From: a virus
Virus record (IMG/VR): IMGVR_UViG_3300042373_001362
Span: 32,001-96,000 of that record
DNA length: 64,000 nt
Direction: 5' to 3' (one strand)
Of this stretch, positions 7,676 through 37,033 are shown one piece after another. The notes below the pieces were generated by a model, which did no database searches, was not told the DNA's origin, and was given only the letters and a program-made list of their open reading frames with translations. A program made the translations under genes and the position numbers. Each line of letters begins with the position of its first letter. Positions within the stretch are counted from its first letter, which is position 1.

Positions 7676-7732
7676 GAGAGAAAACCTAGCACATCATTTA
7701 TGCTAGCGATGGAACTCAGTAAAGAAGATTTA

Positions 7733-8212: not shown

Positions 8213-8226
8213 GTTTATATCCTTCT

Positions 8227-10985: not shown

Positions 10986-10986
10986 T

Positions 10987-11634: not shown

Positions 11635-11674
11635 GTGTTACCTCCGTAAGGATGACAGGTCGACTATTTTCGAC

Positions 11675-14486: not shown

Positions 14487-15292
14487 TAAATCTCCGAGTG
14501 TTGGCCGATGAAGTCCATCAGTCTTTCTGCTGTTGTGTTTCCAACAATTGCAGGGTCGCTACGAAGCCATCTAACAAAGTCATACCAGCGAGACTGCTGA
14601 GCAGGGTTATCAAAAACAATCGTAAACTGAACCACGGCCTGCTGTGCGGCTCCGTTTGCCATTGTCGAACCTCTAACGGCAATGTCATTCTGGTCGGATG
14701 AAGGTGGGGCAACGATTCTTTTTTCTCCATCGCTATCACGAGAAACAGAGAACTGTTGTTCTGGCAATTCTGGGACATCATTGAATCCCTGTATTTCTGT
14801 GTTGCGGTCGATTAGAACAGGCGGAACATAGGAACCAGTTGTAGACATCTCGCTACTGTTCCTGTATGCCTCTTGCTCATACTCGGCAATCTCAAACTCA
14901 TCCCAACCGAGTCCTTCTAAAAGTTCTGGGTAGTCATCGCTTACTGCGGTAATCAGTTCATAAAGAACTTCTGGTTCTGAATAACCTAGTTCAACAGTTC
15001 TATTGTCTGCCAACGCAAACGCAACTGCACGGGAATCGTCACCGTCAAGATAAACAACAGCAACTTTGTCCCACCCAAGCATCTTGGCTGCTTCAAGTTG
15101 GTGGTTTCCTGCGATAACCGTGGCTGTACCATCATCGTTTTTCTTTGCAACAATTGGCTTTACTTGTCCGAATTCAGCATAGGAAGCGGCAATTGCATCA
15201 ACGTCGCCAATTCTTGGATTTTTTTCAAGCGGCAAAAGAGTTTCTATATCTACTGCCATTCCTAACAGTGACTCATGAATTCCATTACTCAT
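14486..15292 (-). CDS. ParB N-terminal domain protein
   Basis: NPRIGDVDAIAASYAEFGQVKPIV..VIAGNH..AFALADNR. Confidence 0.85.
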   Translation of the reverse strand: MSNGIHESLLGMAVDIETLLPLEKNPRIGDVDAIAASYAEFGQVKPIVAKKNDDGTATVIAGNHQLEAAKMLGWDKVAVVYLDGDDSRAVAFALADNRTVELGYSEPEVLYELITAVSDDYPELLEGLGWDEFEIAEYEQEAYRNSSEMSTTGSYVPPVLIDRNTEIQGFNDVPELPEQQFSVSRDSDGEKRIVAPPSSDQNDIAVRGSTMANGAAQQAVVQFTIVFDNPAQQSRWYDFVRWLRSDPAIVGNTTAERLMDFIGQHSEI

Positions 15293-19801: not shown

Positions 19802-21118
19802 CTAGATAACGATAGCAATCCTTCTTCTTTGTTGCAACCCGAGTCCGGCCAAATGTGTAAAAGCCCCAACAGCAGAGTCCACTTGGTCGTCATGGTCGCA
19901 TGCTTCAGGGAAAGAAGAAAGTTCATCAAGCCATTGAGTCAGCCATGGACCCCTAACTACCCTTACGTTTCCATTTGCTACTGCTGCGGCAAATGGTCTA
20001 GCCCTAGTGACCTTGTCTCCGGTTGCCCTAACTCCAGAAAAGTTATAACCGGGAAGAACGTATCTGGCGTACTGGTCGACAAGCGCTTTACCGCTTGAGC
20101 CGGGCTCCATTTCCATAAGAATCGGGGTATCTAGACCGTCTTCGTATGCTGTTTGAGATATTAATTGCTCGACTTTTTCCCCACGAACCCTGACTCTCTT
20201 GACGTCCATGATGTAGGCAATGCCTTGGTCAAACATCATCAAGGTTCCAACCGTGTAGTCAGGGTCAGGGTTGTTTGAACTTGGTTCGGTTGCTGCAAGG
20301 TCCCAAAACCTAACAACTCTTGCTGTGTTGGATATTGTTGGAACTTCAGACTGGTCAATAATAATTACCGACTCTCGTTCAAAGAGGCTTCCGAGAGTCG
20401 TGCTCCACCAGTCACCTTCTTCAAGTCGTCTACGCTCGATTGGGTCAAGGGCTTGCAGAGCCTGACGATACGAATCAGCGTCAATTCCGGGGTTGTCCGT
20501 AAGTTTTGAAGGTACGAATATTCTTCCTTCAGACAATCCCTCAACAATGAATCTCTGCCTTACCCAGTTGGGCGCAGGGTTAGATGCGCAACGCATTCTG
20601 AGGGGGACTTCCGATAGAGGGCCAGAGTTGGGTCGACGCAAGCGGGAGAACATGTAGCGATAGTCGGATTCCCGGATTTCGGTGACTTCGTCCATTCCGA
20701 TGAACTGGAATTCAGAACCTTTGTAGCGAAGATAGTCGGACTGGTTGTTTAGATATCCAAACGAGATTCTTGCCCCCGAAGGGAAGGTAGCCACGAAGCT
20801 GTTGTTGTTCCAGTGGACATCGTCATAGTTGGACATCCACGACTTAAAGCGGTCCATGAGCGCTCCAGGGAGCGACAAGTCTGCGAATGTTCTACGAAAA
20901 AGAATTGCAGAATAGTTGGGAATATCTACAAACTGAAGGGCGGACATTAGAAGCGCAGAAGACTTACCACCGCCAGCAGCACCCCCAAAAAGGGCCTCAA
21001 TGCCGTTAGTTCTTAAAAACACCTTTTGAGGCAAAGACGGCTCTTCTGGGCAGTAATCGGACATCTTTGGTTGGAGATACTCAAGAACTTGTTCCCAGTT
21101 CGTAGGTTGTTCTGACAT
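19802..21118 (-). CDS. terL: terminase large subunit
   Basis: GGAAGGGKS Walker A, MDEVTE Walker B, SNP, FWDLAAT and HDDQVDS nuclease motifs. Confidence 0.93.
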   Translation of the reverse strand: MSEQPTNWEQVLEYLQPKMSDYCPEEPSLPQKVFLRTNGIEALFGGAAGGGKSSALLMSALQFVDIPNYSAILFRRTFADLSLPGALMDRFKSWMSNYDDVHWNNNSFVATFPSGARISFGYLNNQSDYLRYKGSEFQFIGMDEVTEIRESDYRYMFSRLRRPNSGPLSEVPLRMRCASNPAPNWVRQRFIVEGLSEGRIFVPSKLTDNPGIDADSYRQALQALDPIERRRLEEGDWWSTTLGSLFERESVIIIDQSEVPTISNTARVVRFWDLAATEPSSNNPDPDYTVGTLMMFDQGIAYIMDVKRVRVRGEKVEQLISQTAYEDGLDTPILMEMEPGSSGKALVDQYARYVLPGYNFSGVRATGDKVTRARPFAAAVANGNVRVVRGPWLTQWLDELSSFPEACDHDDQVDSAVGAFTHLAGLGLQQRRRIAIVI

Positions 21119-21174: not shown

Positions 21175-21354
21175 ATGCAAAAGTTATGGCTACGAGTTAA
21201 AATCAGACTGAACAGGTCTTTGTTCGCTTATTTTTTCATGGTTTCATTTATAATACTATCTAGTATTGGTGCAGCGCTTATATACCCCCCAGCTGGTTTG
21301 CTGGTTGGAGGGGCTACATGTGGCTTCTTCGGATTTTTGTTAGGTCGTGAGTAA
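21175..21354 (+). CDS. small two-TM membrane protein preceding the portal (59 aa, below the ORF-track cutoff)
   Basis: MQKLWLRVK...IGAALIYPPAGLLVGG...LLGRE*; typical position in HK97-like head modules. Confidence 0.65.
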   Translation: MQKLWLRVKIRLNRSLFAYFFMVSFIILSSIGAALIYPPAGLLVGGATCGFFGFLLGRE

Positions 21355-21359
21355 AAAAT

Positions 21360-23438
21360 ATGGCATGGAACGCTTCAACGAACAAGTCGCTGAATAATCA
21401 AGCACAAAAAGACATTGGACCTGGAGCACCAGTAGCCCAAAATCCTGGCTATGCAGGCAAGCCGTACAGGGACTCCTGGGATATTGAGCGTGCCTATAGA
21501 GAAGGCATGCAGAAGGTTACATGGGTGTCTAGGTGTATCGATGCCATTGCTGGAAACCAGGCAAGACTGCCGATAATACTCAGAAAAGACAACTCACCTA
21601 ATGGTGAAATTCTTTCAATCAGAGAGTCAAAAAAGACAAATCTTCTTAATATTCTAAACTCAAAGTCTAATGTTGGAGAAAACTCCTACATTTTTAGGTA
21701 CAGGCTTTCTGCTCAGCTGATGCTTGGTACTAGGGGTGCTTTTATTGAAAAAGTAAGAGGACGAGACGGCGGAATAATTGGCCTCAACCTATTACCTCCT
21801 CAGTCAACCTCCCCAATACCAGACCCTAAAAAGTTTGTTTCTGGCTACGAAGTTCAAATGCCCACAGGAAACAAGGTCTACCTGAAGCCAGAAGACGTTT
21901 GCTGGGTGAGAAGACCTCACCCAATCGACCCATACTTGTCACTGACCCCATTGGAGGCCTGTGGCGTTGCGATTGAAATAGAAAACCTGGCAAAGCTTTA
22001 CAACAGAAACTACCTATTAAACGACGGTAGACCGGGTGGTTTGCTTGTTCTTCGTGGAGAAATCGACGACGACGACAAAGAAGAATTGAGAAGCCGTTTC
22101 CGTGGAAACCTTTCACGCGCTGGATATACCTCTGTAATCGCTTCCGACGACGGTGTTGACTATGTTGACACTTCAGCAAACCCAAGAGACGCTGCGTACA
22201 TACAGATGCGGCAAATAACAAAGGAGGAAATCCTTGCTTCATTTGGTGTTCCAGAGTCGGTTATCGGTAATGCTGCTGGTAGAACTTTTAGCAACGCTTC
22301 GGAAGAAATTCGTGTCTTTTGGATGGAGACGATGCTTCCCCATTTGGAGATTCTTTCACGGGCTCTAGATGAACTAGATGAAGACAACTATGTTGACTTC
22401 AATGTTGACCAAGTGCCCATTTTGATGCTTTACGAGCAGGAGCGCCACCGCTACTTGATGGACGAATTCAACGCAGGTCTTATCAGCAATAACGAGTACA
22501 GAATAGGCTCAGGTCGCAAAGAAACAGAAAGCGACCTTGCTGACTCGCTCTTGGCTAATCCAAACCTTATTCCTATTGCAAATACGAAGAAGAAGATGGA
22601 AGAGCCTTCTCAAGCTCAGGTTCCAGGTGCACCAGGACAGCCTGGAATGCCCGGAATGCCCCCTGGGGCACCCGGAATGCCCCCAATGCCCGGAATGCCT
22701 CCAGCACCAGGACAACAGCCACCGCTCGACCCAAATACGATGGCTGGGGCAATGGCAGAAGTATCTGGAGCACAGCCAGGCGGAGAACTGGCGCAATCAC
22801 CAATTCCAGGAATGCCTCCAGGAATGATGACCGGAGCAGAGCCAGTACCTCCAGGTGCTACTTCTGCTGAGTCGCCAACCATAATGACAAAAGATGCTCT
22901 TGAAGCGATTTCCCAAAAGCAAGAAATCGAAAGATGGGAAGAGATACTTGTCAGAAGCATGGAAAGAGTCATGGAAAGACAGCAGCGTGTTGTTCTTGAG
23001 AAGTCAAGTGGAGCAAAAGCAAAGAAGGCTTTGTTTGCTGGAACCCTAGATATCCCATCCGTGCTTCACTCGGAGACATGGGACAGACAATTTGATGAAG
23101 ACATTAGGCCAGTAATTACAGCCATCGTCAAAGAGTCGTTGAAAGCATCTACATCAATCGAGAAAAAGTCCGCGAAAAGTTGGGAAGTAGAGTCTGACAT
23201 CATTGCTCAAGTCGATTCTCAAATGTTACGAATCAAGAGCTTGAACCAGGATTTGACAGAGGAAATTACTTCCCTCATGTTGTCTTCTCTGAATGTTTCT
23301 GACGAAGACCAGCGAGCTGGCGCTTTTAGGTCAAACATCGTGTCTTTGTATACAAATGTGTTGGCAAAACGGCTTCCGGAGATAGCTAGCGAGGAATCTA
23401 GGCGTGCCTGGACTTACGGAAAATTCATCGCTAGATAG
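21360..23438 (+). CDS. HK97-family portal protein with Pro/Gly/Met-rich linker and MuF-like C-terminal extension
   Basis: CIDAIA, LTPLEA, NDGRPGGLL, ILASFGVP, NEYR; C-terminal ERQQRVV...IASEESRRAW. Confidence 0.9.
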   Translation: MAWNASTNKSLNNQAQKDIGPGAPVAQNPGYAGKPYRDSWDIERAYREGMQKVTWVSRCIDAIAGNQARLPIILRKDNSPNGEILSIRESKKTNLLNILNSKSNVGENSYIFRYRLSAQLMLGTRGAFIEKVRGRDGGIIGLNLLPPQSTSPIPDPKKFVSGYEVQMPTGNKVYLKPEDVCWVRRPHPIDPYLSLTPLEACGVAIEIENLAKLYNRNYLLNDGRPGGLLVLRGEIDDDDKEELRSRFRGNLSRAGYTSVIASDDGVDYVDTSANPRDAAYIQMRQITKEEILASFGVPESVIGNAAGRTFSNASEEIRVFWMETMLPHLEILSRALDELDEDNYVDFNVDQVPILMLYEQERHRYLMDEFNAGLISNNEYRIGSGRKETESDLADSLLANPNLIPIANTKKKMEEPSQAQVPGAPGQPGMPGMPPGAPGMPPMPGMPPAPGQQPPLDPNTMAGAMAEVSGAQPGGELAQSPIPGMPPGMMTGAEPVPPGATSAESPTIMTKDALEAISQKQEIERWEEILVRSMERVMERQQRVVLEKSSGAKAKKALFAGTLDIPSVLHSETWDRQFDEDIRPVITAIVKESLKASTSIEKKSAKSWEVESDIIAQVDSQMLRIKSLNQDLTEEITSLMLSSLNVSDEDQRAGAFRSNIVSLYTNVLAKRLPEIASEESRRAWTYGKFIAR

Positions 23439-23536
23439 TTTTAGTATTTAGTTTTAGTAAACGACGCTAAAAACCTGAATACTTGCGGTTTCCATTGGTA
23501 TTTTCGTTTATTATCGAAGAAGACACAAGGAGTCAC

Positions 23537-26500
23537 ATGTCCTCTTCTAATAAAAAATCCGACATTCAGTACAAGGCTGCACCGCAAGGAATGGTGAATT
23601 TAGACGAGGCCCAAGGCATCGTCGAATGTTTTGTCGCTGGGATAGGCAACAAAGACTCTGTTGGTGACGTTTGCGCACCAGGAGCTTTCGGCAAGAGCCT
23701 TACCAGAAGGAAGCCACGAGTCGTATGGGGACACAACTGGAACGACCCCATTGGCAAGGTCATCGATATGTACGAGGTTCCACCCAACGACCCTCGTTTG
23801 CCAGCAAAGATGAAGGCTGCAGGAATTGGCGGTCTTTATGCTCGCGTTCAATTCAACCTTATGTCGGAAAAGGGTCGTGAGGCGTTTGCCAATGTTGCTT
23901 TCTTTGGTGAAGAGCAAGAGTGGTCTATTGGTTACAAAACAATCAATGCAAAATTTGACCCACAGATGCAAGCAAACATTCTTTATGAAGTAGAGCTTTA
24001 TGAGGTGTCTCCAGTTCTTCATGGTGCAAACCAGTTGACAGGAACAATTTCAGTAAAGTCGGAAGAGCAGCCATCTGGCGTTTCAGTAATTAATGCACCA
24101 AGCATTGATGGATTAAACGTAAATGAGCTTTCTTCTATTCTTGATGCACTCAAGGCTATTTCTTCTTCCGTTTCAGAAGACGAAAAGTGTGGACCAGGAA
24201 TGATGCCACAGGGAATGCCAGGAATGCCTTCTGGTGGACCAGGCATGCCTTCTGGGCCAAAGCCAATGCATACACATACCCCTGGTGCAGCACCAAGAGA
24301 AGTTGTTAAGCCACAAATTCCATCCATGCCAGAAAACCCAATGACCGTAGCGCTTCGCCGCGAACTTGCGACTCGCACCGGCTCAAACGTAATCGTGCGT
24401 TCAGCAAGCGACAGTGTCGTTGTTTTTGACAGAGTGCTGGCTGACGGAACGTCAAGCACATACAGACTGCCTTTCCATTATGCCGGTGGAGAGTTTATGT
24501 TTGGCAAACCAGAAAAAGTTCAGTCTCAAGCAAACTACGTCCAAGATTCTCCTTTGTCTGAAATCATGGTTGAAGCGCTTCTTTCTGGCCCCACTGCAGG
24601 CGCAGAAAAGTCTTTAATCTCTTTTGATGACCAAGAGTGGGGTGAAGGATTTGGGCAATCAATTCCGTCACAGCAAGTTGATGCTTCAACTTTGAATAGC
24701 GTTATCGCTAATCTTCAAAAAATAATCGAGCAGAAATCTGAATATGTTGTTCAAGTTGCTCCAGAACATGCTTTTGAAGTAAAGCAAGCGATAGACCCAA
24801 TTCTTGATTTCTACAAGGTTGACGCAACCATCAATGAAGATGGAATTGTTGTTAAGTCACTCAATGAAGACTTTTTGAACGCTCTTGACATCGCCACAAA
24901 AGGCGTATTACGCAGTCTTGGCAACCTTGCGGGTAGAGCAATAGACCGCCCTAATATTGGCAGAAACAGAAGAGACAGAACACCCAACCTTGCATCACGA
25001 GGCCCTGGAATTGGTTCACGAGGAGCGGTAGTAAGACTCCGTGATGGAAGCATGTGGGACCCAAAAAACGCACCGGATAGAAACCGTAATGGCATTGTAG
25101 GTGAAGGCCTCTTTGACAGTAGCGGAAGGTCGTTGGCACAGCCAGACCCAACACCAGAGGGGCCAGATTCTATCCGGGGAGCAAAGACACCAAAGTCACC
25201 GCAGACCCCTAAAAGGCAAGCAGCGGCTGCCGCAAAAAGAAACGCTACTGTAAAAAGAACTTCTGGGCAGCCCCAGAAAGCAAGGCAGCGTCTTTCTTCA
25301 GGCGGAATTGACCAAGAAGTTGACGATACACCAATGCTTGAGGAGAAGTTCAAGAAGGAAGTCTCTGGCTTTTTGTCTGAAATAGGAACAAACCGTAATG
25401 AGATAGAAAACATTCTTGACCTGTGGGAAAACAACGATGCAGACCATGACAAGTACATGGAAGAGCATGGAGCTGGTTCAAAAAACTTTGCTGAAAACGT
25501 GGCTTATGCAGCGTCAGCAATGTACGAAGACTACATCTCTGATGCGGGAGATAGGCAGGCTGACCGTCGTGCCGAGGGAGGGCGTTTCTCGTCTGGCGAG
25601 TGGACAAAAATTCCTGGTGTTGGCTATGAGATGGATGCCCCAGACATCGAAGGTGCTTACGAAATCCAAGAAGGCCTTGATGGGAAGTTCTATGTAGTTA
25701 GATTCTCTGATGGCAACCGCAACGGTGGTCAGGACATGACCGAATACGAACATGACAAGCCTTTCTCTACTCTTGCAGCAGCAAAGAAGTGGGCTGAAAA
25801 AGACTATGCACAAGCAGCGGACGAGTACATGCCAGATGAAGAAATGCCAGATGGTGATGCATCCGAAAGACTGAATAGCCTTGTTGCTCCAGAACTACCA
25901 AGCCTTGACGGCATGGACGAGTCTGAAGCAGATGAAGCCTTGCAAAACTTTAGTGACGAAATGTTCAGCTTTGTTAACGAGACAGAGAACATTGCCAGAG
26001 AAGTACTAGGTGACGACGAATACAACAAGAGATTTGGCGGAGCAGTGCCCCTCATTGAAGAGATTTCAAAGAGGCACGATGGAAGCATTGAGCAGCGTGA
26101 TATTGCTCTAGAAAATGCCTTTGACCAAGCAGAGAGGTTTAACAACTCTGTTAACGGTTCACTTGGCGGCGGAAGATTCTCTTCTGGTCAAATCGACTTC
26201 GACAAGATAGGTGAATCAGGTCTCAGGGAAATGCGCCATGTTGAGCGCAACCCTCTTAGATTTGATACACAGGCAGACAAAGATGCACGCGCTGCGTACG
26301 AACGGGTTGTAGCAAACTTTAGAGCAAACAACGGTTTCTTCCGTGAAGTGCCCATGTATGCAGGTGATAAAAAGTGGCACAGCGAAGACTGGTTCCGTGG
26401 CCGCGAGATGGCAGAAAACGTTGCCACCTTGCGATTTGGCGACCCGATTGACCAAATGCCGTTCTTCGATAAACCAGGAAAGCCATCAAAAAGAGAATTC

Positions 26501-29500
26501 TTCGAGAGAACTACGGCTGTTGATTACAAGTCCTGGTATATGACCAAAATTCCAGCCATGACGCAAGAGCTGGACAGAGTGCTTGCTTCCGACGCCTATT
26601 CAGATGAATACAAAGAAGCATTCCTAGAAGGAATGAGGACATTCTTCTACGTGAATAGGCCAAACCTTCAGTACGCTCCGAAAGATACACAGGCGCAGTA
26701 TGAAGAGTGGCTTCAGCGGTCAGGTCTCGGCTGGAAGGGTAGATACTCTACTTCTGGTCCAAAATTTGAAGACCTTGACGACACGGGAAGATTTTCTTCT
26801 GGTGCTAAAGACAAAAAAACAATCAATTCGTATGACAACTCGGAAGACCTTAAATCGGCGATGTTTAGCGCATTGTGGACAAACGGTTCACGTGACGAAA
26901 TAAACAACATGACAGCTGAAGAGCTGGCTGAAATACTAAGCGTAAATCCAGAATGGGTTGAACCTCTTCTTGAAGACACTAAAAAATACACAATCGAGGC
27001 AATGGACGATTATGATAAGTATTTATCTTCTCTTCCTGAGCCAACTGATGAAGAGATAAACCAGGAGTACCAAGAGTGGTTGTCGCGACAGGCTGGCGCA
27101 GACTACGCACAGGGCATGACTGTTAGAGACAAATTCCAGGACATGACCGACGAAGAGGCTGCAGACTACGCTGCATGGCTCGACGAAGAAACATGGAGAG
27201 ACAGAGACGATAGGTTCTCCTCGGGAGGAGGCAAAACACCTGAAGAGCGTCTTGAAGAATACAACAGAAGAAGTGCAGAAAAGAACGCAGTTCTTGAAAA
27301 GATGACTCCCGAAGAGCTAGAAGAATACGCTCGTGAATGGAATGAAAGTCATGTTGAAGATGTTCGTCTTTCATCTGGTTCAACAAATAGACCAAAGTCT
27401 ACAAAAACCGGAGAAGAATTTATTGGCCGTAGCTATGGTCTTCATGATTTCTTTGTCTACGACGAAGAAGACGATTTTGAAAACATCGACAAAGCTATTG
27501 TAGATTCGCTTCTTAAGAACGAAAGAATAACCCTTGATGACCTTTTGCTTGAAGTGCGAGGTATTAAGGACCCTGACCTTAGCGGAGAGGCATTGGTCCG
27601 CAGGCCGGACTATATGGGCGCAAACGCAAGGCGTGTTGCTGAAGCCGTTGCAAACAACACATCCGTTAATCCATCGCTGGCCAACCAGAAAGCCGGAAGA
27701 GAAGACATACTTCACTTTAGGTACAACGGTAAGCAGCGCTCCATATACCCAGAGACTTTTTCAACAAGCAAAAAGGGTGTTGGTTATTTTGTTGGATGGG
27801 ACGAAACCGCAGATAACGGCAACGGTGCATACAGAAGTTTCAATGTAGACAAAATAGAAGGTCTTATATCTAGCGCAATACCTCCACATGTAGACAGAGC
27901 AGCAAGGTATACCGATTATTCATGGAACATAACTGACTTCTCTGATGAAGATAATCAAAAAATTCTTGAACAGATGCGACGCACTAAAGAGTTCAGGGTT
28001 CTTGATGACGCGCAAGACCTGATAGACGATGAGGTGAGCGCAGGAGGCACAAGAGTTGCAGGCTCGACTCTTGATATTGCGGAAAAAGAAGCCCAAGCAG
28101 CTTTCCAGGATGCTCGCAATAGACAAATCGACAAGATGGTTGCCGACGGCAAAATTAAGCCGCTATCAAGAGATAGTAGATTCTCTTCAGGAATGGTTAA
28201 CGACGGTCTTCCAGACGGATACTGGGACACCGCAGACGACATGGCAGATTCTTATGGTGATAGAGAAGACTATACAGACGCAAGATTCTCCTCTGGTGGA
28301 ATGCCAAGCACCAAAGAGCAAGCAGACCTAATAGCGTTTGCTAGGTCAAAGCCTGGCACTTTTACAGACAGTGTTGTTTCTCAATTTGACAGAAATAGAA
28401 GACTGTCAGAAAAGCAATGGGACGCAATACGCAGAATGATGCGCGGCGCATCTGGTGGTAAGGCTGCTCCAAAAGCAGATAAACCAACTGCTCGTTTTTC
28501 TGGAAAGCGTCGTCAAATTGTAGATATTGCCGATATTGAAAAGTATGACTACCCAGAGCTTCCTGCAAAGATAAAGCCAACACCGGAACAAGACAGAGCT
28601 ATCGATGCGATGATGACTGGTGCAGACGTAAAGATTGGTGCTTTAGCAGCAACAGGAAAGACGACAACCGTTATCAACTTTGCTAACCGTCTTAAGGCTA
28701 AAGAGCCAGACGCAAGGGTTGTCTATCTCGTGTTTAACAGAAACGCAAAAGACGACGTAGAAAAGCGTGGAATGCCAGGAAACGTTTCTGTCTCAACGAT
28801 GGACGGAATTGCTTACAGAGCAATGGACGCTATCAACCCAGAAATGACCAAGAAGAGCTTTGACAAAAAAGAGGGCCACATAAAGCCAATCAACTCTTTC
28901 AAAGATAGGGCTAAGTATCTTGGTACAAAGGGAATGGTTTCCCAAGGCGAAGAATTGACCGATGTTGATGTTTATAGAATCGTAGCTAAAGCGATAGATG
29001 CCTATTCAATAAGCGACGACAAGGAAATTGGACCACAACACTTTACTGGCCCATACAACGGTTCATACAGGGTGACAGACACTTCATTGCTTCCTGAGTT
29101 GCTTAAGTATGCAAACAAGATGTGGGAAGACATGAATCTTCCTAGAGTCAATGGTGCCACCAGGAAAGACCAAAAAGGAATGCTTCCTGTAAACAACACA
29201 CATCTAACAAAGATGTGGGCATTGACAAATCCAGACATAAGCGAAATTGCTGAAGTCAATGTGGCAATGGTTGACGAAGCTCAAGACATGAACCCAGTTT
29301 TTGCTGGAATATTGAGGAACTCAAACCTTCAGAAAATCTACATTGGTGACACAAACCAGGCAATTAACGCATGGCGTGGAGCAGACGGAACAACGCTTGC
29401 AAATGTAGAAGCAACATACGACATGCCAATTACTGATTCGTTCAGATTCGGCAAGAACGTAGCGAACATGGGCAACAGATTCCTTTCGCTTCTCAATACA

Positions 29501-32500
29501 AAAGAGCGCATGACCGGAAGAAAGACAGACAAGTCTGGAAATCCTGTTGACGGAAGAATTGGACAAGTTGATAACCCAACAATGATTTTGACACGCTCTA
29601 ATGGCGGAGCTATCGCTGCAACCATGGAAGTGTTTGCAGATGGTGGAATTGTTTACGGAAGCCAAAACTTCAAGAGAGATTTGGAGAACTTCTTAAACAA
29701 CATCGAATGGATGCAGAATGCCCAAAAGGGCAAACCGTTCTATACAGACGTATATGGAAAGAAAGTATTTTCAGCTCCTGAGTTCAGTCAAGACCTTGAC
29801 GGAATTACAAACATTGCAGACTTCAATAAGGCTATTGAAAAGGGCGATGACAACAGACTGAACATGCTTTCTAAGCTGATGAACGAATACTCGCTTGAAG
29901 ACTTGAGAGAATCTCTCAATAACATCATTACAGACAAAAACAAGCTTCCAAAGAATCGTGACGAGTATGTCCACATCCAGACAGCCCACACATCAAAGGG
30001 CCTCGAATCACCACGAGTGAAGATTTGGTCAGACTTTAGAAAGCCAAAGAAACTTCCAAACGGTGAATGGGAATACCCGAACGAGCAGGAGATGAGGCTT
30101 TCCTATGTTGCTGTAACAAGAGCAGAGGAAGAACTTGACCTAGGTTCACTTAGTTGGATTCTTGACCACACAACAGAAGAGGACGGTATGCCGAATACTT
30201 TCTCTTCTGGAAGAAGCAAGGCAAGAGGCAACAGAGGTGATGGCAAGGGAAGACAAAAACCATGGTCGGCAGAAGATAGGCAAAGATTTGCGGACAGGGA
30301 CATTCTTCGTTCACAAACACGCCCAGGAAAGCGTCGTCCAGGTCCTTCAGCAAACGAATTCTCGTCTGGTGCTGAATTTGATTTCACTCCAGAAGAGCTC
30401 AATAGGTGGCAAAAAGCTAGCGAACATGCCAGCGCGTATGGCGATTGGGAAAATCTTCCAGAAAACAGAAAAAACGGATATCTTCGTAAATTCAACGGAG
30501 ATGAAAATCTTGCTCGCGAGCAATTTAACGTGGAAAGAGATTTGGCAGACTTTGCTGCAGATGCACAATTTGACAAAACAGATTCACGATTCTCTTCTGG
30601 AGGCCGCTTCGCAACACCACTGGATGCACCAGAGGGCTGGGAAATGCCAGAAATTGGTGATGACGGCGAAATAAAGAATGGACCGCTTAAGGGTTACTAT
30701 GTTCGTGGCTTCGGGGACGATTACGTACGAGGAAGAAAATACGTAAGCTATCGTGGTGCAGACTACAGTAGTACTGATGAGCACAAAAATAACTTAGTTG
30801 ATTGGGGTGATTACGAAGCGGGATACACCCTCGACAGAAACATAGGCTCTGACGAGGACATTAGGAGCATTTCTGACTCTTCCGAGCAAGAAGAAATGGC
30901 GCAGTATGGCGACGAAGGTTTGTACTATGGCAATAGTTCACGCGGGCGATACGACCCTCAAAATGATTATGAAACTCCAGTAACCGACGACTCCCATTCA
31001 CCAGAAAACGGTGCAGACCACATCGGTAAAGCCGTATCCGTAACGGATGAAAATGGAAACAAATTCTACGGTGTAGTTGTTAGAGGTTGGGAACCGGAAT
31101 ACGAAGAAGACTTAGATGTTGATGAGGATGGGTGGGCAACCCCGAGCATGAACATACAAGACGGTGGCATGGTAGTTCTCGCTACTCATGATGCTGACGG
31201 CAAAAAACTTGATAAACCAGTAGTTGTTGAGGCAAGTTTTGGTCTTGAAAATGAATACGCCCTCGTATCAAATGTTGAGAGAGGTGGAGACGACTACGAA
31301 GGGCCAAAGGTCAATGTATCAAAAGGCCGTGTAAGTGAAGAAACCCTTGACGAAGCCAAAAAGCTTTATGAAGAACTGGACCCATATAGAAATGGTAAAG
31401 CCGAGGAGTTCAGGCGTCAAGGAGCCTTGATAGATAGAGCATGGAGAATGCCGGGAGGCGAAAAAGAGCGCAGGGAAAAAGCTGCCGAAGAAGCTTACAG
31501 AAGAAGCCCTGAAGGAATACAAGAGCAAAGAGAAAAGCTAGAAGCATCCATATCGGCTATAGAAGACAAGATAAGAAGCGCGGAGTCTTCTCGTGAATCT
31601 CTCATGGAGAGGCTGAACGATGTTTCTGAAAGTGGAGACAATGTCCTTGCTTCAAAAATGGAAGAAATATTAAGAGACAGAGAGGGAGCGGTACGACTCC
31701 TCCAAGAAAGACTTGAAGAAGCAAAAGCTGAACTAGATGCTTTTAATGGCGAAGGAAACAGGCTTTCTTCTGGAAGATTTGCGCCTGATGGACAATCGGG
31801 TTCAAGGCTTCAAAGAAGACTTTCTTCTGGCGATGTTTTTGGCCCACCACCAGGACAGTCGGCAAGGTATGACCGCAAGAAGCAAGTCGAGGCAACGATG
31901 GGTGCATTCCATTCTGACCCAGGCAAGGCTGTTGTGTCGAGCGACACCGAAGGCTTATTGGGTAAAATCCCTTCCGGTAAGAACTCCCATATCCTTAACG
32001 CCGAAGCAGCTAAGAGAATAATTGCAGACCCAGATACAGAGTATTCAGCAGATACCGGATGGCCGGTAGATGCAGGAAGACTTCTTGATTTCATCGAAAT
32101 TGAGAATCCTCTTGGTGGACGTCCAAGCACTCTTCGTGATAAAGACGACGCACAGCTTATTGCAAGGGTTTTGGGTATACCAGTATCGGATGCTCAGGAC
32201 ATGCTTGACGGAAAGCCTGTATACATTGCCAGCTCAACTGCGGCTGACATGTTTGACAACCTTTCAAGAAGCAGAGAGTACACAGCAAGCGTTGGTGGAT
32301 TAAACGACGTAGCGAGAGTTTGGGGATTTGATGGCGCTCCAAAGTGGGTGCGTCATAGCGATATTGCTACTCCAGAATTTGACCTCGACGAAAACGACAG
32401 AGTTAACTGGTCGCAGGTTAAGTGGGATGGACTTTCGAGGGCTGACTTTGATGCAGCAGTAAGAAGAGGGAATAACCCACCAGAACCCGTATACACATCA

Positions 32501-35374
32501 CCTGTTGAGTTTTTCAATAGTGATGCAATCGCCAGTAACCCCAAGTGGGACGCTCGTGGTGGCTCATTCAGAAACCCAACTGTGGATGCTGAGTTCACTG
32601 CAACACCAAAGAAGGTTGCTAGAGCTGAACAGCTGGAGCCAGAAAGATTTGTTTCTCAGGCAAGAGCCGGAGAAAGGGTTGCACGCGCTGACAAAGATTT
32701 CATGGATGAATGGACCAACGGAAGTCATGGAATTGGTGCAGCGCAGCTTATGCAAATGCTTGGATTGGAAAGAGATTCAGAAGGCGACCGCATAAGCAGC
32801 CAAGACGTAAGAAAGCTTCTTGATGAAATAAACAAGATTAAAGAAGAAGCTGGAAGCGGACTTGTTCCTGCTGCAAAGAGGGAAGACGGAAAATTTAAAG
32901 AATCACTTGAGCTGGACACAAAGAAGTCTCCAATCAATGATGAAATAATGCACGCCCTCATTGTTTCTGGAAGATTCAAGAACATGAAAGAAGCGGTTGC
33001 TTCTCTTGGTGACCCAAGACTTGATTCTCTTGCTGCAGAATATGACTCCCGCATGCTTGTAGATGCAGCATTTATAAGAATCAAAGACCATTTAAACAAG
33101 GTTGGAGCAGCAGACCAAAAGAAGATTCTTTCTAAGGTAATCACTGCCACCCTTGGTCGCAAGACAACACTTGAATCTCGCGTACAGGAAGGCAGAGCAT
33201 CAATCAAGGGTGTAATGAATTCAGACGCAATGATTGGCGATGAAAAGCTTTCCGAAGTAATTGGCATGGTCAACGAGGTTCTTGATGCAAGGGGTCTTGA
33301 GACAATCGACAAGGATGCATTGTTCCCAAGGGACGAGGCAGGCGGATTTGTGAACAACTTGAGTGCTTCGGCTCCAGGCGCAACGAGGCTTGCTTCTGGT
33401 CAGAGGTTTGTAGCCAGAACCGCATCAAGCAGAAGAGCTGATGCCGGAATGGATGCTGCAGCAAGAAGAGCAACAGATAGGCCAACGTTCTCAAGCGGTG
33501 CAAAGCCAGCATTTAGGGACCCAGACGGAAAACTGAACGCCACAAACATGAGAGATGCTGCATCCGAAGCAACAATTCCAGAAGGAACAATGATAAGAAA
33601 AACTCCTGGCCAAAATATAGAAGACTTTGAAAAAGCAGTTAAGACGAGGGCCGAAATAGCAGAAACCCTAAACATAGATACTTCAGCAATAAATGGCTTT
33701 ACTGTCTACGACGTTATAGACGAGCTTAAAAAGGCAGGAATACCTGAAGATACCGCAGAAGACCTTGTCGATAAGCTTGTAGAACTAGATTTCTATATTG
33801 ATGCAATCGAGGAGAGATTCTCTGAAGCCAGAGAAATCATGGATGAAGCTATTGAAGAAGCTGAAGATGCTATGGACAAGATTGCGAAGCTAAGAAAAGA
33901 GCGTGCCGACATTATTAATAGGTACGGCGAAGAAGATGGACAGCCACTGCTTGAGGTTGTTGATGAAAAAATTAGCAGAGCGACAAAAAAGCTTGACGAT
34001 GCCTACCAAAGAGGTATCGGCAATGAGGATGCAAGAATGGGAACTCTCTATTCTCAGGTTGACGAAATTCTGAGCAATAATCGTGGATGGAGAGAGTATT
34101 CGCCATCCCCATGGGGAGATAGTACAAATCAGAACCTTGCTGCTCTTGAATTAGCAATTGCAAAAGCTGGCGGAGTAAAGAAAGCCGTACCAGTTACGGG
34201 AATAGATTTCGGAGTTCCAGAAGGCACAAGGCTTTCTTCAGGAAAAGCAGAAGAGTATTACCAAAACCTCACAAGCCACTTGATAAACATGATTGAAAAA
34301 TCACAAAAAGAAGGCGGTAAGTGGGAAGCACCATGGCATAAGGCTGGAAACCTTCCAAGAAATGCTTCTACAAAGAATATGTATTCGGGTGGAAACATCT
34401 TTGCTCTTATGCTTGCAGCCGAAGAAAAGGGCTTCACAACCTCTCACTGGGGTGGATTCCAGCAGTGGAAGAAGCTTGGAGGAAGCGTAAAGAAGGGTGA
34501 AAAGGCAACCATCATCCTCATGCCAAAGCAGATGTTTGGTGAGGAAATCGACCCAGACACAGGGCAGAAGGTTAGAAAGTCAAAGGGCGTATATTTTACG
34601 ACCGCACATGTTTTCAACCTTGACCAAGTTGAGGGAATTGACCGCGATGAGTTCTTGAAGCTGCCGACAGATGCTCTGACACCAGAGCAGAGAGTCACAA
34701 AGCTTGAAGACGCAATCAAGGAAGTTGGTGCAACAATCAAGACCGGAGATGGAAGTAGGGCCTACTACTCTCCGCGTGAAGACCATGTTGTGATGCCTCC
34801 ATTCGAACTGTTCAAGTCCCCAGAGGGATACTACGGAACACTCGCCCATGAGCTTGTTCACTGGACAGGGCATTCGTCAAGACTTGACAGAAAGAACATG
34901 AACCAGTTTGGTTCTCCTGACTATGCAAGAGAAGAGCTTATTGCTGAATTTGGCTCAGCTTTCCTGTTGGCAATGTTTGGTCTTTCTGCAGAACCAAGAG
35001 AAGACCATGCCCATTACTTGGCAAACTGGTTGCAGGTTCTTCGCGATGAGCCAAATGCTCTACAGGAAGCAGCAACGAAAGCTCAAGAAGCATCAAAAAT
35101 GCTTATCGACAAGATGAAGGCAGTTCTGGAAGAGATGGGCGAAACCGCATCTACTGCTGAGTCGACGGTAGAAGAAAAGAATGCAAATATTTTTACAGAC
35201 CCGCTTTACGGAATAAAGAATGGACTTGTTGAGTGGAGCAAAAACATTGAGAACGCTCCATATTTCATCAAATCCTTGACAGACCCTGATGAGAAATACG
35301 GAAATGTAAATAGAAGATGGGAAAGAATTGCGGAAGCAGCGCTATTCCTGAACGGAATAAACAACAAAATCTAG
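23537..35374 (+). CDS. giant polyprotein 1: prohead protease + RFSSG-delimited modules (WYL, SF1 helicase, ArdC)
   Basis: AAGGAG RBS before ATG 23537; continuous ORF; domain motifs listed separately. Confidence 0.9.
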   Translation: MSSSNKKSDIQYKAAPQGMVNLDEAQGIVECFVAGIGNKDSVGDVCAPGAFGKSLTRRKPRVVWGHNWNDPIGKVIDMYEVPPNDPRLPAKMKAAGIGGLYARVQFNLMSEKGREAFANVAFFGEEQEWSIGYKTINAKFDPQMQANILYEVELYEVSPVLHGANQLTGTISVKSEEQPSGVSVINAPSIDGLNVNELSSILDALKAISSSVSEDEKCGPGMMPQGMPGMPSGGPGMPSGPKPMHTHTPGAAPREVVKPQIPSMPENPMTVALRRELATRTGSNVIVRSASDSVVVFDRVLADGTSSTYRLPFHYAGGEFMFGKPEKVQSQANYVQDSPLSEIMVEALLSGPTAGAEKSLISFDDQEWGEGFGQSIPSQQVDASTLNSVIANLQKIIEQKSEYVVQVAPEHAFEVKQAIDPILDFYKVDATINEDGIVVKSLNEDFLNALDIATKGVLRSLGNLAGRAIDRPNIGRNRRDRTPNLASRGPGIGSRGAVVRLRDGSMWDPKNAPDRNRNGIVGEGLFDSSGRSLAQPDPTPEGPDSIRGAKTPKSPQTPKRQAAAAAKRNATVKRTSGQPQKARQRLSSGGIDQEVDDTPMLEEKFKKEVSGFLSEIGTNRNEIENILDLWENNDADHDKYMEEHGAGSKNFAENVAYAASAMYEDYISDAGDRQADRRAEGGRFSSGEWTKIPGVGYEMDAPDIEGAYEIQEGLDGKFYVVRFSDGNRNGGQDMTEYEHDKPFSTLAAAKKWAEKDYAQAADEYMPDEEMPDGDASERLNSLVAPELPSLDGMDESEADEALQNFSDEMFSFVNETENIAREVLGDDEYNKRFGGAVPLIEEISKRHDGSIEQRDIALENAFDQAERFNNSVNGSLGGGRFSSGQIDFDKIGESGLREMRHVERNPLRFDTQADKDARAAYERVVANFRANNGFFREVPMYAGDKKWHSEDWFRGREMAENVATLRFGDPIDQMPFFDKPGKPSKREFFERTTAVDYKSWYMTKIPAMTQELDRVLASDAYSDEYKEAFLEGMRTFFYVNRPNLQYAPKDTQAQYEEWLQRSGLGWKGRYSTSGPKFEDLDDTGRFSSGAKDKKTINSYDNSEDLKSAMFSALWTNGSRDEINNMTAEELAEILSVNPEWVEPLLEDTKKYTIEAMDDYDKYLSSLPEPTDEEINQEYQEWLSRQAGADYAQGMTVRDKFQDMTDEEAADYAAWLDEETWRDRDDRFSSGGGKTPEERLEEYNRRSAEKNAVLEKMTPEELEEYAREWNESHVEDVRLSSGSTNRPKSTKTGEEFIGRSYGLHDFFVYDEEDDFENIDKAIVDSLLKNERITLDDLLLEVRGIKDPDLSGEALVRRPDYMGANARRVAEAVANNTSVNPSLANQKAGREDILHFRYNGKQRSIYPETFSTSKKGVGYFVGWDETADNGNGAYRSFNVDKIEGLISSAIPPHVDRAARYTDYSWNITDFSDEDNQKILEQMRRTKEFRVLDDAQDLIDDEVSAGGTRVAGSTLDIAEKEAQAAFQDARNRQIDKMVADGKIKPLSRDSRFSSGMVNDGLPDGYWDTADDMADSYGDREDYTDARFSSGGMPSTKEQADLIAFARSKPGTFTDSVVSQFDRNRRLSEKQWDAIRRMMRGASGGKAAPKADKPTARFSGKRRQIVDIADIEKYDYPELPAKIKPTPEQDRAIDAMMTGADVKIGALAATGKTTTVINFANRLKAKEPDARVVYLVFNRNAKDDVEKRGMPGNVSVSTMDGIAYRAMDAINPEMTKKSFDKKEGHIKPINSFKDRAKYLGTKGMVSQGEELTDVDVYRIVAKAIDAYSISDDKEIGPQHFTGPYNGSYRVTDTSLLPELLKYANKMWEDMNLPRVNGATRKDQKGMLPVNNTHLTKMWALTNPDISEIAEVNVAMVDEAQDMNPVFAGILRNSNLQKIYIGDTNQAINAWRGADGTTLANVEATYDMPITDSFRFGKNVANMGNRFLSLLNTKERMTGRKTDKSGNPVDGRIGQVDNPTMILTRSNGGAIAATMEVFADGGIVYGSQNFKRDLENFLNNIEWMQNAQKGKPFYTDVYGKKVFSAPEFSQDLDGITNIADFNKAIEKGDDNRLNMLSKLMNEYSLEDLRESLNNIITDKNKLPKNRDEYVHIQTAHTSKGLESPRVKIWSDFRKPKKLPNGEWEYPNEQEMRLSYVAVTRAEEELDLGSLSWILDHTTEEDGMPNTFSSGRSKARGNRGDGKGRQKPWSAEDRQRFADRDILRSQTRPGKRRPGPSANEFSSGAEFDFTPEELNRWQKASEHASAYGDWENLPENRKNGYLRKFNGDENLAREQFNVERDLADFAADAQFDKTDSRFSSGGRFATPLDAPEGWEMPEIGDDGEIKNGPLKGYYVRGFGDDYVRGRKYVSYRGADYSSTDEHKNNLVDWGDYEAGYTLDRNIGSDEDIRSISDSSEQEEMAQYGDEGLYYGNSSRGRYDPQNDYETPVTDDSHSPENGADHIGKAVSVTDENGNKFYGVVVRGWEPEYEEDLDVDEDGWATPSMNIQDGGMVVLATHDADGKKLDKPVVVEASFGLENEYALVSNVERGGDDYEGPKVNVSKGRVSEETLDEAKKLYEELDPYRNGKAEEFRRQGALIDRAWRMPGGEKERREKAAEEAYRRSPEGIQEQREKLEASISAIEDKIRSAESSRESLMERLNDVSESGDNVLASKMEEILRDREGAVRLLQERLEEAKAELDAFNGEGNRLSSGRFAPDGQSGSRLQRRLSSGDVFGPPPGQSARYDRKKQVEATMGAFHSDPGKAVVSSDTEGLLGKIPSGKNSHILNAEAAKRIIADPDTEYSADTGWPVDAGRLLDFIEIENPLGGRPSTLRDKDDAQLIARVLGIPVSDAQDMLDGKPVYIASSTAADMFDNLSRSREYTASVGGLNDVARVWGFDGAPKWVRHSDIATPEFDLDENDRVNWSQVKWDGLSRADFDAAVRRGNNPPEPVYTSPVEFFNSDAIASNPKWDARGGSFRNPTVDAEFTATPKKVARAEQLEPERFVSQARAGERVARADKDFMDEWTNGSHGIGAAQLMQMLGLERDSEGDRISSQDVRKLLDEINKIKEEAGSGLVPAAKREDGKFKESLELDTKKSPINDEIMHALIVSGRFKNMKEAVASLGDPRLDSLAAEYDSRMLVDAAFIRIKDHLNKVGAADQKKILSKVITATLGRKTTLESRVQEGRASIKGVMNSDAMIGDEKLSEVIGMVNEVLDARGLETIDKDALFPRDEAGGFVNNLSASAPGATRLASGQRFVARTASSRRADAGMDAAARRATDRPTFSSGAKPAFRDPDGKLNATNMRDAASEATIPEGTMIRKTPGQNIEDFEKAVKTRAEIAETLNIDTSAINGFTVYDVIDELKKAGIPEDTAEDLVDKLVELDFYIDAIEERFSEAREIMDEAIEEAEDAMDKIAKLRKERADIINRYGEEDGQPLLEVVDEKISRATKKLDDAYQRGIGNEDARMGTLYSQVDEILSNNRGWREYSPSPWGDSTNQNLAALELAIAKAGGVKKAVPVTGIDFGVPEGTRLSSGKAEEYYQNLTSHLINMIEKSQKEGGKWEAPWHKAGNLPRNASTKNMYSGGNIFALMLAAEEKGFTTSHWGGFQQWKKLGGSVKKGEKATIILMPKQMFGEEIDPDTGQKVRKSKGVYFTTAHVFNLDQVEGIDRDEFLKLPTDALTPEQRVTKLEDAIKEVGATIKTGDGSRAYYSPREDHVVMPPFELFKSPEGYYGTLAHELVHWTGHSSRLDRKNMNQFGSPDYAREELIAEFGSAFLLAMFGLSAEPREDHAHYLANWLQVLRDEPNALQEAATKAQEASKMLIDKMKAVLEEMGETASTAESTVEEKNANIFTDPLYGIKNGLVEWSKNIENAPYFIKSLTDPDEKYGNVNRRWERIAEAALFLNGINNKI
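23615..24061 (+). other. HK97-type prohead protease domain (S78)
   Basis: DSVGDVCAPGAF, WGHN..PIGK, GLYARVQF, WSIGY, LYEVSPVLHGAN. Confidence 0.9.
27701..27862 (+). other. WYL-like domain
   Basis: HFRYNGKQRSIYP...YFVGWD...YRSFNVDKI. Confidence 0.7.
28577..30145 (+). other. UvrD-like SF1 helicase domain
   Basis: TPEQ, ALAATGKTT, VDEAQD, IGDTNQAINAWRGA, SFRFG, TAHTSKGLE, YVAVTRA. Confidence 0.9.
34244..35120 (+). other. ardC: ArdC-like domain pair (ssDNA-binding + zincin metallopeptidase)
   Basis: APW..PRN..YSGGN..FQQWKKLGGSVKKGEK..VFNLDQ; AYYSP..HELVHWTGH..RLDR..YAREELIAE. Confidence 0.88.
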
Positions 35375-35465
35375 GAATAGTAATCAGTACATACACCGCA
35401 ATACTTACTCGAATGATACGTTTAGAGTATAATTTACGGTACTTACCAATTAGGAGTCATCTTTT

Positions 35466-37016
35466 ATGAACGATGAAATGAACATGAGCCTCAGCGTCAC
35501 AGGAGATGGCGAAGTTCTGAAGTGCGCAAAAATGGGCGCTGACGTCTCTGGCTGCGGGTACACGCCTGGTTCAAAGCTTTGTGCCAAATGTGGTGCGATG
35601 CCAACTCAGGTAAAAATCGTTCCCGTTGACGAACCAGAAGACGAGATGGAAGACGAGATGGAAGACGACGACCGTGCAATGCCTGCTCCAAGAATGGGCA
35701 ACAAGCCTGCGCCAGTCGCCATGGAAGACGCTGGCATGGAGCCAGAAGAGCTTGAAGTCGAAGACGAAGAAGACGAAGAGTCCATGGATGAAGAAAAAAC
35801 AGCTTATTACAAGAAGTATGGCTATGACCGCTACGTCAAGAAGTATGGCAAGAAGCCATGGATGATGGACGGAGAAGGTCCTGACGAAGAAGAGGATATG
35901 AGTGACGAAGAAAAGGCTCTCCTCTGGGCTCTCAACAAGAAGCGCAAGGCTCGTGGTCTGACGGCAACCCAAAACGGCATGGACGTAAAGGGTATGGGCG
36001 AAGAGTATTACGAAGAAGAAGACGAAGAAGACGAAGAAGAAATGTCTGAGGACATGCCAGAAGACGACGAAGTCGAAAAAATGGCAATGCTCGAAAGAAT
36101 GCGCAAGAAGCGCATTAAGTCACTGGGCATCACACCAGAGGCTGTAGGTCCTCGCGGCTATCTTTGCGCCATCGAAAGAAAGGCATACCCAGGTGGAGCG
36201 TCTGTTTGTGACGACTGCCCAGGCGGATGTGTTTCAGAAAAGGGACTTCCTGGCTTGCTTCATGTCGAAGGTCTTGCTGAGCAGATGTTTAAGGGAACAG
36301 TTCTTGACTCCGGATACTCAGCAAAAGCAGACATGTACGTCATTGATATCCAAACAAAAACTGGCGCAGTAAACGAAGTCTTCGTTGACGGAACAACTGC
36401 AGAGGTCATGGGTTTCCACAGGCTTGACAACTCCGTATTTGAGCAGAAGTCGGCACAAGACAGCATGCAGATGATTCAGTTCTATGAAGCAGCAGACATT
36501 GCTGTTAAGTCAATTGACGGCCACGTAATTGGTGTTGAGCCAGATTCTTTTGAAGGAATCGATGCATACGCAGTAGAAATTGATGGCTTCGACGGTAAGT
36601 CATATGACGTCTTTGTTTCTCTTGATGGCGAAGTTCTGGGCTACGATAAGTACGAGATGGACGAAGCAGAAGAGATTGAAGCAGAAGCTGCAGAAATTGC
36701 TCTGAAGCGTGCGTTCACTGAAGACCAGCGCACATCGATGGCTAAGGAAGGAACAGCAATGCCAGATGGTTCGTTCCCAATCAAGAACGAATCAGACTTG
36801 CGTAATGCAATCCAGGCCTACGGTCGTGCAAAGGACAAAGAAGCCGCAAAGCGCCACATCATGAAGCGTGCGAAAGAAATGGGCAAAGAGAACCTGATTC
36901 CTTCAAACTGGGTAATGGGTGGCGGAACCGAAAAGAAGAGTGACGTTGTTGACGCAAGTTTGATGGCTTCTCTTATCGAATTCGAGCTTCTTCAAGCCGA
37001 AACAGAAATCAACTAG
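35466..37016 (+). CDS. acidic head-region protein with Cys clusters, two PepSY-like repeats and a C-terminal PDGSFPI domain
   Basis: CxxC motifs, Glu/Asp tracts, EAADIAVKSIDG..YAVEI..YDVFVSLDGEVLG, AMPDGSFPIKNESDLRNAIQAYGRA. Confidence 0.7.
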   Translation: MNDEMNMSLSVTGDGEVLKCAKMGADVSGCGYTPGSKLCAKCGAMPTQVKIVPVDEPEDEMEDEMEDDDRAMPAPRMGNKPAPVAMEDAGMEPEELEVEDEEDEESMDEEKTAYYKKYGYDRYVKKYGKKPWMMDGEGPDEEEDMSDEEKALLWALNKKRKARGLTATQNGMDVKGMGEEYYEEEDEEDEEEMSEDMPEDDEVEKMAMLERMRKKRIKSLGITPEAVGPRGYLCAIERKAYPGGASVCDDCPGGCVSEKGLPGLLHVEGLAEQMFKGTVLDSGYSAKADMYVIDIQTKTGAVNEVFVDGTTAEVMGFHRLDNSVFEQKSAQDSMQMIQFYEAADIAVKSIDGHVIGVEPDSFEGIDAYAVEIDGFDGKSYDVFVSLDGEVLGYDKYEMDEAEEIEAEAAEIALKRAFTEDQRTSMAKEGTAMPDGSFPIKNESDLRNAIQAYGRAKDKEAAKRHIMKRAKEMGKENLIPSNWVMGGGTEKKSDVVDASLMASLIEFELLQAETEIN

Positions 37017-37033
37017 AGCAAGGACTACCCGAC

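Follow-up and report, generated by a model that had tools for sequence, protein, structure and literature searches.

In the genome of an uncultured phage known from lake-water metagenomes, the prohead protease is encoded at the N-terminus of a giant protein of 3,945 amino acids (aa), in which a short repeated peptide motif follows the protease and flanks the recognisable cargo domains, among them a helicase and an anti-restriction module. The genome is the IMG/VR record IMGVR_UViG_3300042373_001362, which is complete (148,355 bp, direct terminal repeats). The window, to which coordinates refer unless stated otherwise, is the stretch of 64,000 nucleotides (nt) at bases 32001-96000 of that record. 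On balance, we favour the reading that the giant open reading frame (ORF) encodes a capsid-loaded polyprotein, predicted to be cut by its own S78 protease. By means of this chain, the phage would probably load injectable enzymes into its head.

The giant ORF starts 98 nt after the end of the portal gene, which lies directly upstream, and forms a single open frame from TTG 23483 to the stop codon at 35372-35374. The likely start codon is ATG 23537, preceded at a distance of 5 nt by a ribosome-binding site read from the sequence (Table 1), and the resulting chain has a mass of 434 kDa. A first-pass annotation, made without database searches, had described a frame of about 3,950 aa after the portal; its coordinates and motifs were correct. 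Read coverage across the ORF, which it had named as a check, was also examined. Logan contigs from four lake-water runs, belonging to at least three separate studies of different years, cover positions 21300-37100, and portal, protease and cargo are bridged by single contigs (22251-25641) at 0 differences. A contig of a variant strain (21300-25838) bridges the same three parts and keeps the frame, with 117 differences over 4.5 kb and small indels that are in frame and mutually compensating (-1/-2 and +1/-1). Dozens of independent metagenome contigs possess the same architecture. Against this evidence, the probability that an assembly chimera or a sequencing artefact produced the long frame is negligible, and nothing was found in favour of it.

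The same contigs show that the cargo varies between strains. In a strain co-occurring in run X8, four module-size skips were found within the giant ORF (25838-26168, 26807-27142, 27222-27386 and 33498-34153). In the one fully defined replacement of the variant strain, 26 nt stand in place of 329 nt, which shortens the ORF by 303 nt (101 codons) without a frameshift, and the RFSSG motif at 26174 comes right after it. Gain and loss of cassettes between linkers seems to be the way in which the cargo evolves.

The N-terminal domain of the chain matches the Pfam family Peptidase_S78, for which the curated cut-off is 21 bits (score in Table 1; 38-44 bits in relatives), and also the PHROG family 'head maturation protease'. 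Catalytic His66 (codon 23732-23734, in WGHNW) and Ser130 (codon 23924-23926, in EWSIGY) do not vary among 27 diverged relatives with overall identities as low as 45% (alignment A1), and residues 20-175 are almost invariant across the same relatives. An intact HK97-type protease (WGHN, WSIGY) directly after the portal had been noticed in the first-pass annotation, and the Pfam and PHROG matches, together with the invariant His and Ser, confirm it. Profile comparison of the domain with the capsid maturation protease annotated in Gordonia phage ChisanaKitsune revealed 40% identity; the two share the Ser motif EWSIGY and the catalytic His.

The AlphaFold model of this region has a predicted local distance difference test (pLDDT) score of 60-80 in the protease part. 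Its best match among 48,161 PDB representatives was T4 gp21, at a modest Z-score of 7.7 (root-mean-square deviation 3.4, 117 residues aligned), and the protease of varicella-zoster virus was also matched (Z 6.2). A Foldseek search of the PDB with the model gave no significant match, with gp21 at rank 9, and a PDB sequence search with aa 1-603 gave no match. No second S78 protease, ClpP or S49 protease was matched in the complete genome, where S78 matches the giant ORF alone. Since this domain is the sole prohead-type protease in the genome and the capsid protein carries a delta-like extension, it must, as far as can be judged from sequence, be the phage's working capsid-maturation protease, with the capsid protein as its expected substrate.

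The fusion was found in numerous relatives. In IMG/VR, 541 loci encode the N-terminal 600 residues, and the protease is on a long frame in all 80 relatives that were fetched (80/80). A survey of S78 homologue lengths, likewise proposed in the first-pass annotation, found these related loci to be long: the complete protease ORFs among the 80 have 1,027-3,661 aa, none being shorter, and many still-open ORFs exceed 3,800 aa, some of them passing 3,900 aa. The protein database holds at least 240 clusters of relatives, 2,179-6,936 aa in length, of which the listed ones reach 4,736 aa. Apart from one 'hypothetical protein', every named cluster is designated 'HK97 family phage prohead protease', and among the cargo of the clusters are sigma-70 region 4, pentapeptide repeats, KTSC, DEAD and UvrD helicases, and ArdC/MPTase. 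In five relatives that were compared, the N-terminal module was present in all five and the ArdC module in three, and other motif-delimited modules were shared by some and absent in others. The protease domain is near-invariant, and the cargo is reshuffled one module at a time. No capsid gene was found within 10 kb of short protease fusions. Taken over these predicted proteins, the fusion is real, ancient, conserved and common in metagenomes.

The closest cultured homologues are gp30 of Gordonia phage ChisanaKitsune and the corresponding proteins of Gordonia phage GMA6 and Brevibacterium phage Cantare, with 38-41% identity in the protease and 47-48% in the capsid protein. In these three phages the protease is unfused and has about 500 aa, which shows that the length of 200-250 aa taken as normal in the first-pass annotation was the wrong baseline for related actinophages. 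ChisanaKitsune gp30 (501 aa) consists of the protease and an acidic tail ending in a C-terminal box (C-box), without cargo and without the linker motif. Similar to the phage described here, ChisanaKitsune possesses contractile-tail genes annotated in the same order, including sheath and baseplate. Ten genes lie between its portal and protease genes (L119, 10536-22410), including an RNA ligase, a VIP2-like ADP-ribosyltransferase and a 969-aa HNH protein. No common linker motif was found in the ten genes of this interval. The RNA ligase, ADP-ribosyltransferase and HNH genes may correspond, in unfused form, to the cargo.

The conserved N-terminal module (aa 1-589) comprises the protease and two small domains, and its size is comparable to that of the entire unfused protease of the cultured relatives. 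Structure searches with the two small domains returned generic fold matches only, cystatin/VirB8-like in the case of the first. In relatives, the stretch before the first linker contains the motif DPK-x-W/R-D-x-D-G-D-G-[IVM]-[IV]-x-[ED]-G, a DxDxDG motif resembling a calcium loop (A1 columns 610-635), which is degenerate in this phage (DRNRNGIVGEG, aa ~520-555, window 25100-25200).

With its S78 protease, UvrD helicase, ArdC-N and MPTase-PolyVal domains and further unassigned modules, the chain corresponds to a polyvalent-type cargo protein. The helicase module keeps the Walker A GKT and DEAQD, and the ArdC-N/MPTase region matches the PHROG anti-restriction protein (1.5e-80). A WYL domain in the 271-aa module was not matched by Pfam at E <= 0.01.

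The motif x-[FL]-[SA]-S-G, mostly in the form RFSSG or RLSSG, is present in 16 copies in the giant ORF. For [FL]SSG, 15 copies were observed against 0.17 expected from shuffles. The first copy ends the conserved N-terminal module at 25303, where the region singled out in the first-pass annotation also ended. Every cargo-type Pfam domain (helicase, ArdC, RNase_T) is flanked by the motif at its borders: copies at aa 1584 (nt 28286) and aa 2222 (nt 30200) bracket the helicase, and the last one (aa 3566, nt 34232) stands just before ArdC-N (aa 3573). The sequences around the motif are modestly richer in polar and small residues (0.71 vs 0.63). Among the other real head genes of this genome, besides the two giant ORFs, none possesses the motif. 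An additional R[FL]SSG match at nt 35914 was discarded as a chance match, its frame being broken by stops.

At every position of the motif the codons vary between copies; four different codons encode Arg, and Ser is written both as TCN and as AGC. Selection therefore operates on the peptide and not on the DNA. For the same reason, DNA-level recombination was rejected as the source of the uniformity of the motif. The first-pass annotation had proposed that the protease stands in cis with its possible substrates, and a repeated, peptide-selected linker at domain borders gives this part of the proposal good support. In the HK97 capsid protein and herpesvirus assemblin, cleavage takes place between K and S and between A and S, respectively, and the invariant last Ser of the motif recalls the primed-side Ser of these sites.

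Distant relatives lack RFSSG and possess instead a repeated tetrapeptide of their own, in all cases fitting [G/R]-[hydrophobic]-[S/A/R]-S. The variants found were GMRS (15 copies, L064), GLAS (9 copies, L033), GLRS (L032, L038, L051 and L077), G[FL]SS (L040, L044 and L048), GFAS (L053, L055, L061 and L070) and GARS (L078). In the relatives, the first copy always occurs at residue 480-600, directly after the conserved N-terminal block, in the version proper to the lineage. Within a genome, the variant is common to all giant ORFs of the head operon; GMRS is present 15, 16, 4 and 2 times in four such giants of G001, and GLAS 9, 10, 2, 2 and 2 times in five giants of G002. S78 is the sole Pfam peptidase in the motif-bearing ORFs of G002, L064 and L053, and Pfam could not detect the MPTase in G002 and G003 (contigs 79-88% complete). 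With S78 as the only peptidase in several motif-bearing ORFs and no MPTase in these two relatives, the fused S78 protease is the most economical candidate for the predicted reader of the motif.

The second giant ORF of the phage, which encodes no protease, raises the motif total over the two giants to 25 copies. Here the motif again flanks an enzyme module, with copies at aa 1811 and 2111 on the two sides of the RNase_T exonuclease (aa 1863-2041). The C-terminal ~200 aa of this protein match PHROG 'head morphogenesis' families and may represent a separate capsid-targeting handle.

Between the two giants lies a gene for a strongly acidic protein of 516 aa. Its C-terminal box (nt 36705-36911) has 62% identity over 69 aa (BLASTP, E 1e-25) to the C-terminus of the 501-aa ChisanaKitsune protease. 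The acidic protein is a separate ORF in all of the fetched loci with both genes (29/29), starting 15-149 nt after the protease ORF. In HK97, a C-terminal tail targets the protease to the procapsid. The 516-aa protein seems to be a scaffold or targeting tail that was separated from the protease, and the two small domains (aa 261-338 and 383-466) occupy the place of such a tail before the first linker. A structure-based complex test of aa 1-480 against the delta-like region of the capsid protein (aa 1-170) gave a score of 0.00, which has no weight either way.

The border between the delta-like region and the mature part of the capsid protein has the peptide DIKQLSSREIKSIGEM. In this clade, a partial motif (QLSSR, QLTSR or HLSSR) stands at the border, four residues ahead of a conserved SIGE. 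Elsewhere the likeness is loose, with SLGSS and GLGAS in the GLAS, GFAS and GFSS lineages, and GLERG and NGRTS in others.

The motif was also found in a protein of 1,703 aa at the tape-measure position, with KLSSG near the N-terminus and RFSSG near aa 745. Its similarity to an annotated Gordonia tape-measure protein fell short of significance (E 0.06), and the label is taken from gene order only. Orthologues carry the motif of their lineage in the central Gly-rich region or near the N-terminus (GMRS in G001, GLAS in G002, RLSSG in G005 and GFAS in G010). Related variants (GFAS, GLAS) are present in the orthologues of G003 and G011, and the lineage motif is uncertain in G004.

According to the reading we favour, the N-terminal module (aa 1-589) would enter the assembling procapsid and pull in the attached cargo of about 3,350 residues. 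Concentrated inside, the protease would cut at the 16 R[FL]SSG linkers of its own polypeptide and at the 9 of the adjacent 3,490-aa chain, probably just before the last invariant Ser. About 17 pieces would be released, including the SF1 helicase and the ArdC-type anti-restriction module, and these would remain in the head and enter the actinobacterial host together with the DNA.

Several observations weigh against this reading. Motif-bearing giants without a protease exist, one in this phage and up to three more in relatives, which shows that the system does not depend on fusion. The acidic C-box tail, which is within the protease gene of the cultured relatives, is a separate gene here. The capsid border contains only a partial copy of the motif, and matches are poorer in other lineages. 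The protease domain barely changes across lineages with differing motifs, and nothing evident retunes its specificity. The lineage motif is also present in a tail protein that is assembled outside the head, beyond the reach of a prohead-confined protease, which would mean that cutting also occurs outside the head or after ejection, or that another factor reads the motif. In the first-pass annotation, the fusion was said to guarantee encapsidation of the downstream modules. With the acidic tail separate, other motif-bearing giants lacking the protease and the motif in a tail protein, encapsidation would be at best a probable consequence, and of the interpretation offered there only the protease in cis with likely substrates is retained.

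The presence of the motif both in the protein at the tape-measure position and in head cargo, which are both ejected classes, would also fit a chain that is packaged and delivered and whose linkers are cut by the zincin MPTase or by a host protease after ejection into the cell. We regard this as unlikely, although it is the strongest competitor. The capsid border lacks a clean copy of the motif, an MPTase-PolyVal domain is present at the C-terminus of the chain, and autoprocessing by MPTase has been proposed for polyvalent proteins (PMC5512222). However, the motif-laden giants of G002 and G003 (contigs 79-88% complete) lack the MPTase, and S78 is the sole Pfam peptidase in several ORFs. As for a host enzyme, the motif variants differ between close phage lineages, which is easier to reconcile with a phage-encoded recogniser than with a conserved host enzyme. 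A host protease of Prp type, which presumably would act as at the L27 site in Firmicutes (FFAS, cut between FF and AS), was set aside, given that three WhiB genes indicate an actinobacterial host and that the motif lacks the upstream Prp context. Somewhat less likely than cutting by the MPTase or a host protease, the S78 module could act beyond the prohead and recognise a lineage-specific cut code that is phage-wide, being present in all proteins leaving the virion, head cargo and tape-measure protein alike. S78 or a co-ejected partner would then free an exchangeable set of about 25 effectors or more, upon ejection or later.

It is doubtful that the chain remains uncut, with the motif as a flexible hinge or docking peptide and the giant as a tethered multi-enzyme. 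N4 vRNAP, ArdC and TraC1 do travel uncut (PMC5512222), and the enrichment of polar and small residues around the motif is modest. Nevertheless, a bare hinge needs no five fixed residues kept through synonymous changes, nor does it require that several proteins change their motif together across a whole lineage. A fusion of protease and scaffold like that of herpesvirus UL26, in which the chain would be digested and expelled in maturation and not delivered, appears very improbable. The nearest cultured relatives do carry a protease with an acidic scaffold-like tail, and the protease shares the assemblin fold; however, the enzyme domains of the chain keep intact catalytic motifs (GKT, DEAQD and HELVH), the acidic scaffold-like protein has its own gene, and the capsid protein has a delta-like domain of its own.

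Among known systems, packaging and injection have been predicted for polyvalent proteins, and embedded peptidases were proposed to process the chain (PMC5512222). The phage described here shares with them a giant multidomain chain beside portal and terminase genes, the pair of ArdC-N and MPTase, and a helicase (PMC5512222). In the survey of Iyer et al. 2017, assemblin-like peptidases are 'always at the C termini' of polyvalent proteins (PMC5512222), whereas the peptidase here is N-terminal (aa 28-171 of 3,945) and is the only maturation protease of the phage. A repeated lineage-specific linker motif common to several proteins is not discussed there (PMC5512222). Similar to T4 with gp21 and to phiKZ/SPN3US with gp175/gp245, in which internal or ejection proteins are cut at short motifs and the products are ejected (PMC10052503, PMC5694885), one short consensus site is common to several head proteins of a phage. 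Nonetheless, the substrates of T4 and phiKZ are encoded by separate genes with N-terminal propeptides, while here as many as 17 modules share one polypeptide with the protease. The hydrophobic-small-Ser motif is also unrelated to L/I-x-E or A/S/G-x-E, and the protease belongs to family S78 here and to S77 there.

An N-terminal serine protease of assemblin fold with a C-terminal extension is also the arrangement of two further systems, and both of these self-cleave with a primed-side Ser. They are the herpesvirus UL26 protease-scaffold precursor, reportedly described by Welch et al. in 1991, and HK97 gp4, which is said to possess a C-terminal capsid-targeting tail (reportedly Duda et al., 2013). 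In contrast to these, whose extension is a scaffold or targeting tail, the extension here is enzymatic cargo and the acidic tail has its own gene. No description of N-terminal prohead-protease cargo fusions was found in the literature. The system belongs to the polyvalent-protein theme and, by analogy, would work like the protease-processed head cargo of T4 and phiKZ. New with respect to the known systems are the N-terminal maturation protease, the repeated lineage-specific linker code and the reach of this code into a tail protein.

If the favoured reading is correct, about 15% of the coding capacity (22 kb, two genes) would be devoted to protein cargo, and up to about 25% in relatives, with the cargo loaded by riding on the maturation protease or by being cut by it. 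This would be a naturally occurring, modular means of filling a capsid with many enzymes, and a simple, sequence-readable cleavage code would make the products predictable in hundreds of uncultured freshwater actinophages. It would also extend the polyvalent-protein concept by an architecture absent from the founding survey, and it raises the puzzle of the same code in a tail protein. Were the code instead phage-wide, one gene would combine a maturation protease with a programmable cargo loader, and it would be a candidate for the long-unidentified enzyme of tape-measure processing.

Table 1. Positions in the window of the protease-led giant ORF, its domains and linkers, and the neighbouring head and tail genes.
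Feature	Position	Strand	Remarks
Tape-measure-position protein, 1,703 aa	1792-6903	-	After sheath, tube and tail chaperone genes
Contractile-tail module	7136-12331	-	Head-tail adaptor, Neck1, sheath, tube, tail assembly chaperone
Large terminase gene	19802-21118	-	Diverges from portal gene on opposite strand
Portal protein gene	21360-23438	+	Pfam Phage_portal 1.4e-48; PHROG portal protein
Ribosome-binding site AAGGAG	23527-23532	+	Strong
Giant ORF, protease-led predicted cargo polyprotein, 3,945 aa	23537-35374	+
S78/HK97-type prohead protease domain, aa 28-171	23618-24049	+	Pfam PF04586 Peptidase_S78, 37.5 bits
Small alpha+beta domain 1, aa 261-338	24317-24550	+	Conserved block FMFGKPEK in alignment A1; pLDDT 80-86
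Small domain 2, aa 383-466, ferredoxin/KH-like	24683-24934	+	Alignment A1, AlphaFold model
Span of all 16 motifs	25289-34246	+
First linker RLSSG, aa 585-589	25289-25303	+	Ends conserved N-terminal module
F/L codon starts of motifs	25292, 25586, 26177, 26792, 27215, 27368, 28181, 28286, 30200, 30359, 30590, 31763, 31820, 33389, 33488, 34232	+
UvrD-like SF1 helicase, aa 1683-2200	28583-30136	+	Pfam UvrD-helicase and UvrD_C; PHROG DNA helicase 6.4e-68
ArdC-N single-stranded-DNA-binding domain, aa 3573-3693	34253-34615	+	Pfam 2.1e-25
Zincin MPTase-PolyVal, aa 3722-3847	34700-35077	+	Pfam 1.5e-43; HELVH at 34847
Acidic protein, 516 aa	35466-37016	+	CxxC pairs; 92 nt after giant ORF
Second giant ORF, 3,490 aa	37034-47506	+	9 motif copies; RNase_T exonuclease module; no protease
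HK97-fold major capsid protein	53888-55255	+	Pfam Phage_capsid 1.5e-41; delta-like N-terminal extension

The capsid gene is located about 18.5 kb downstream of the giant ORF in the same strand block, and the protease is thus encoded between the portal and capsid genes. Given the contractile-tail module, the phage is a myovirus, like Gordonia phage ChisanaKitsune. Three genes of the WhiB family are present in the genome (60706-60921 (+) in the window, and 135239-135430 and 461-652 in genome coordinates), and together with the actinophage relatives they point to a freshwater actinobacterium as host. The tail module is flanked by a PAPS-reductase-like gene (12957-14096 (-)) and by two ParB-like genes (12413-12967 and 14486-15292 (-)). 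Beyond the capsid gene, the window also encodes a B12-dependent ribonucleotide reductase (56785-58725 (-)).

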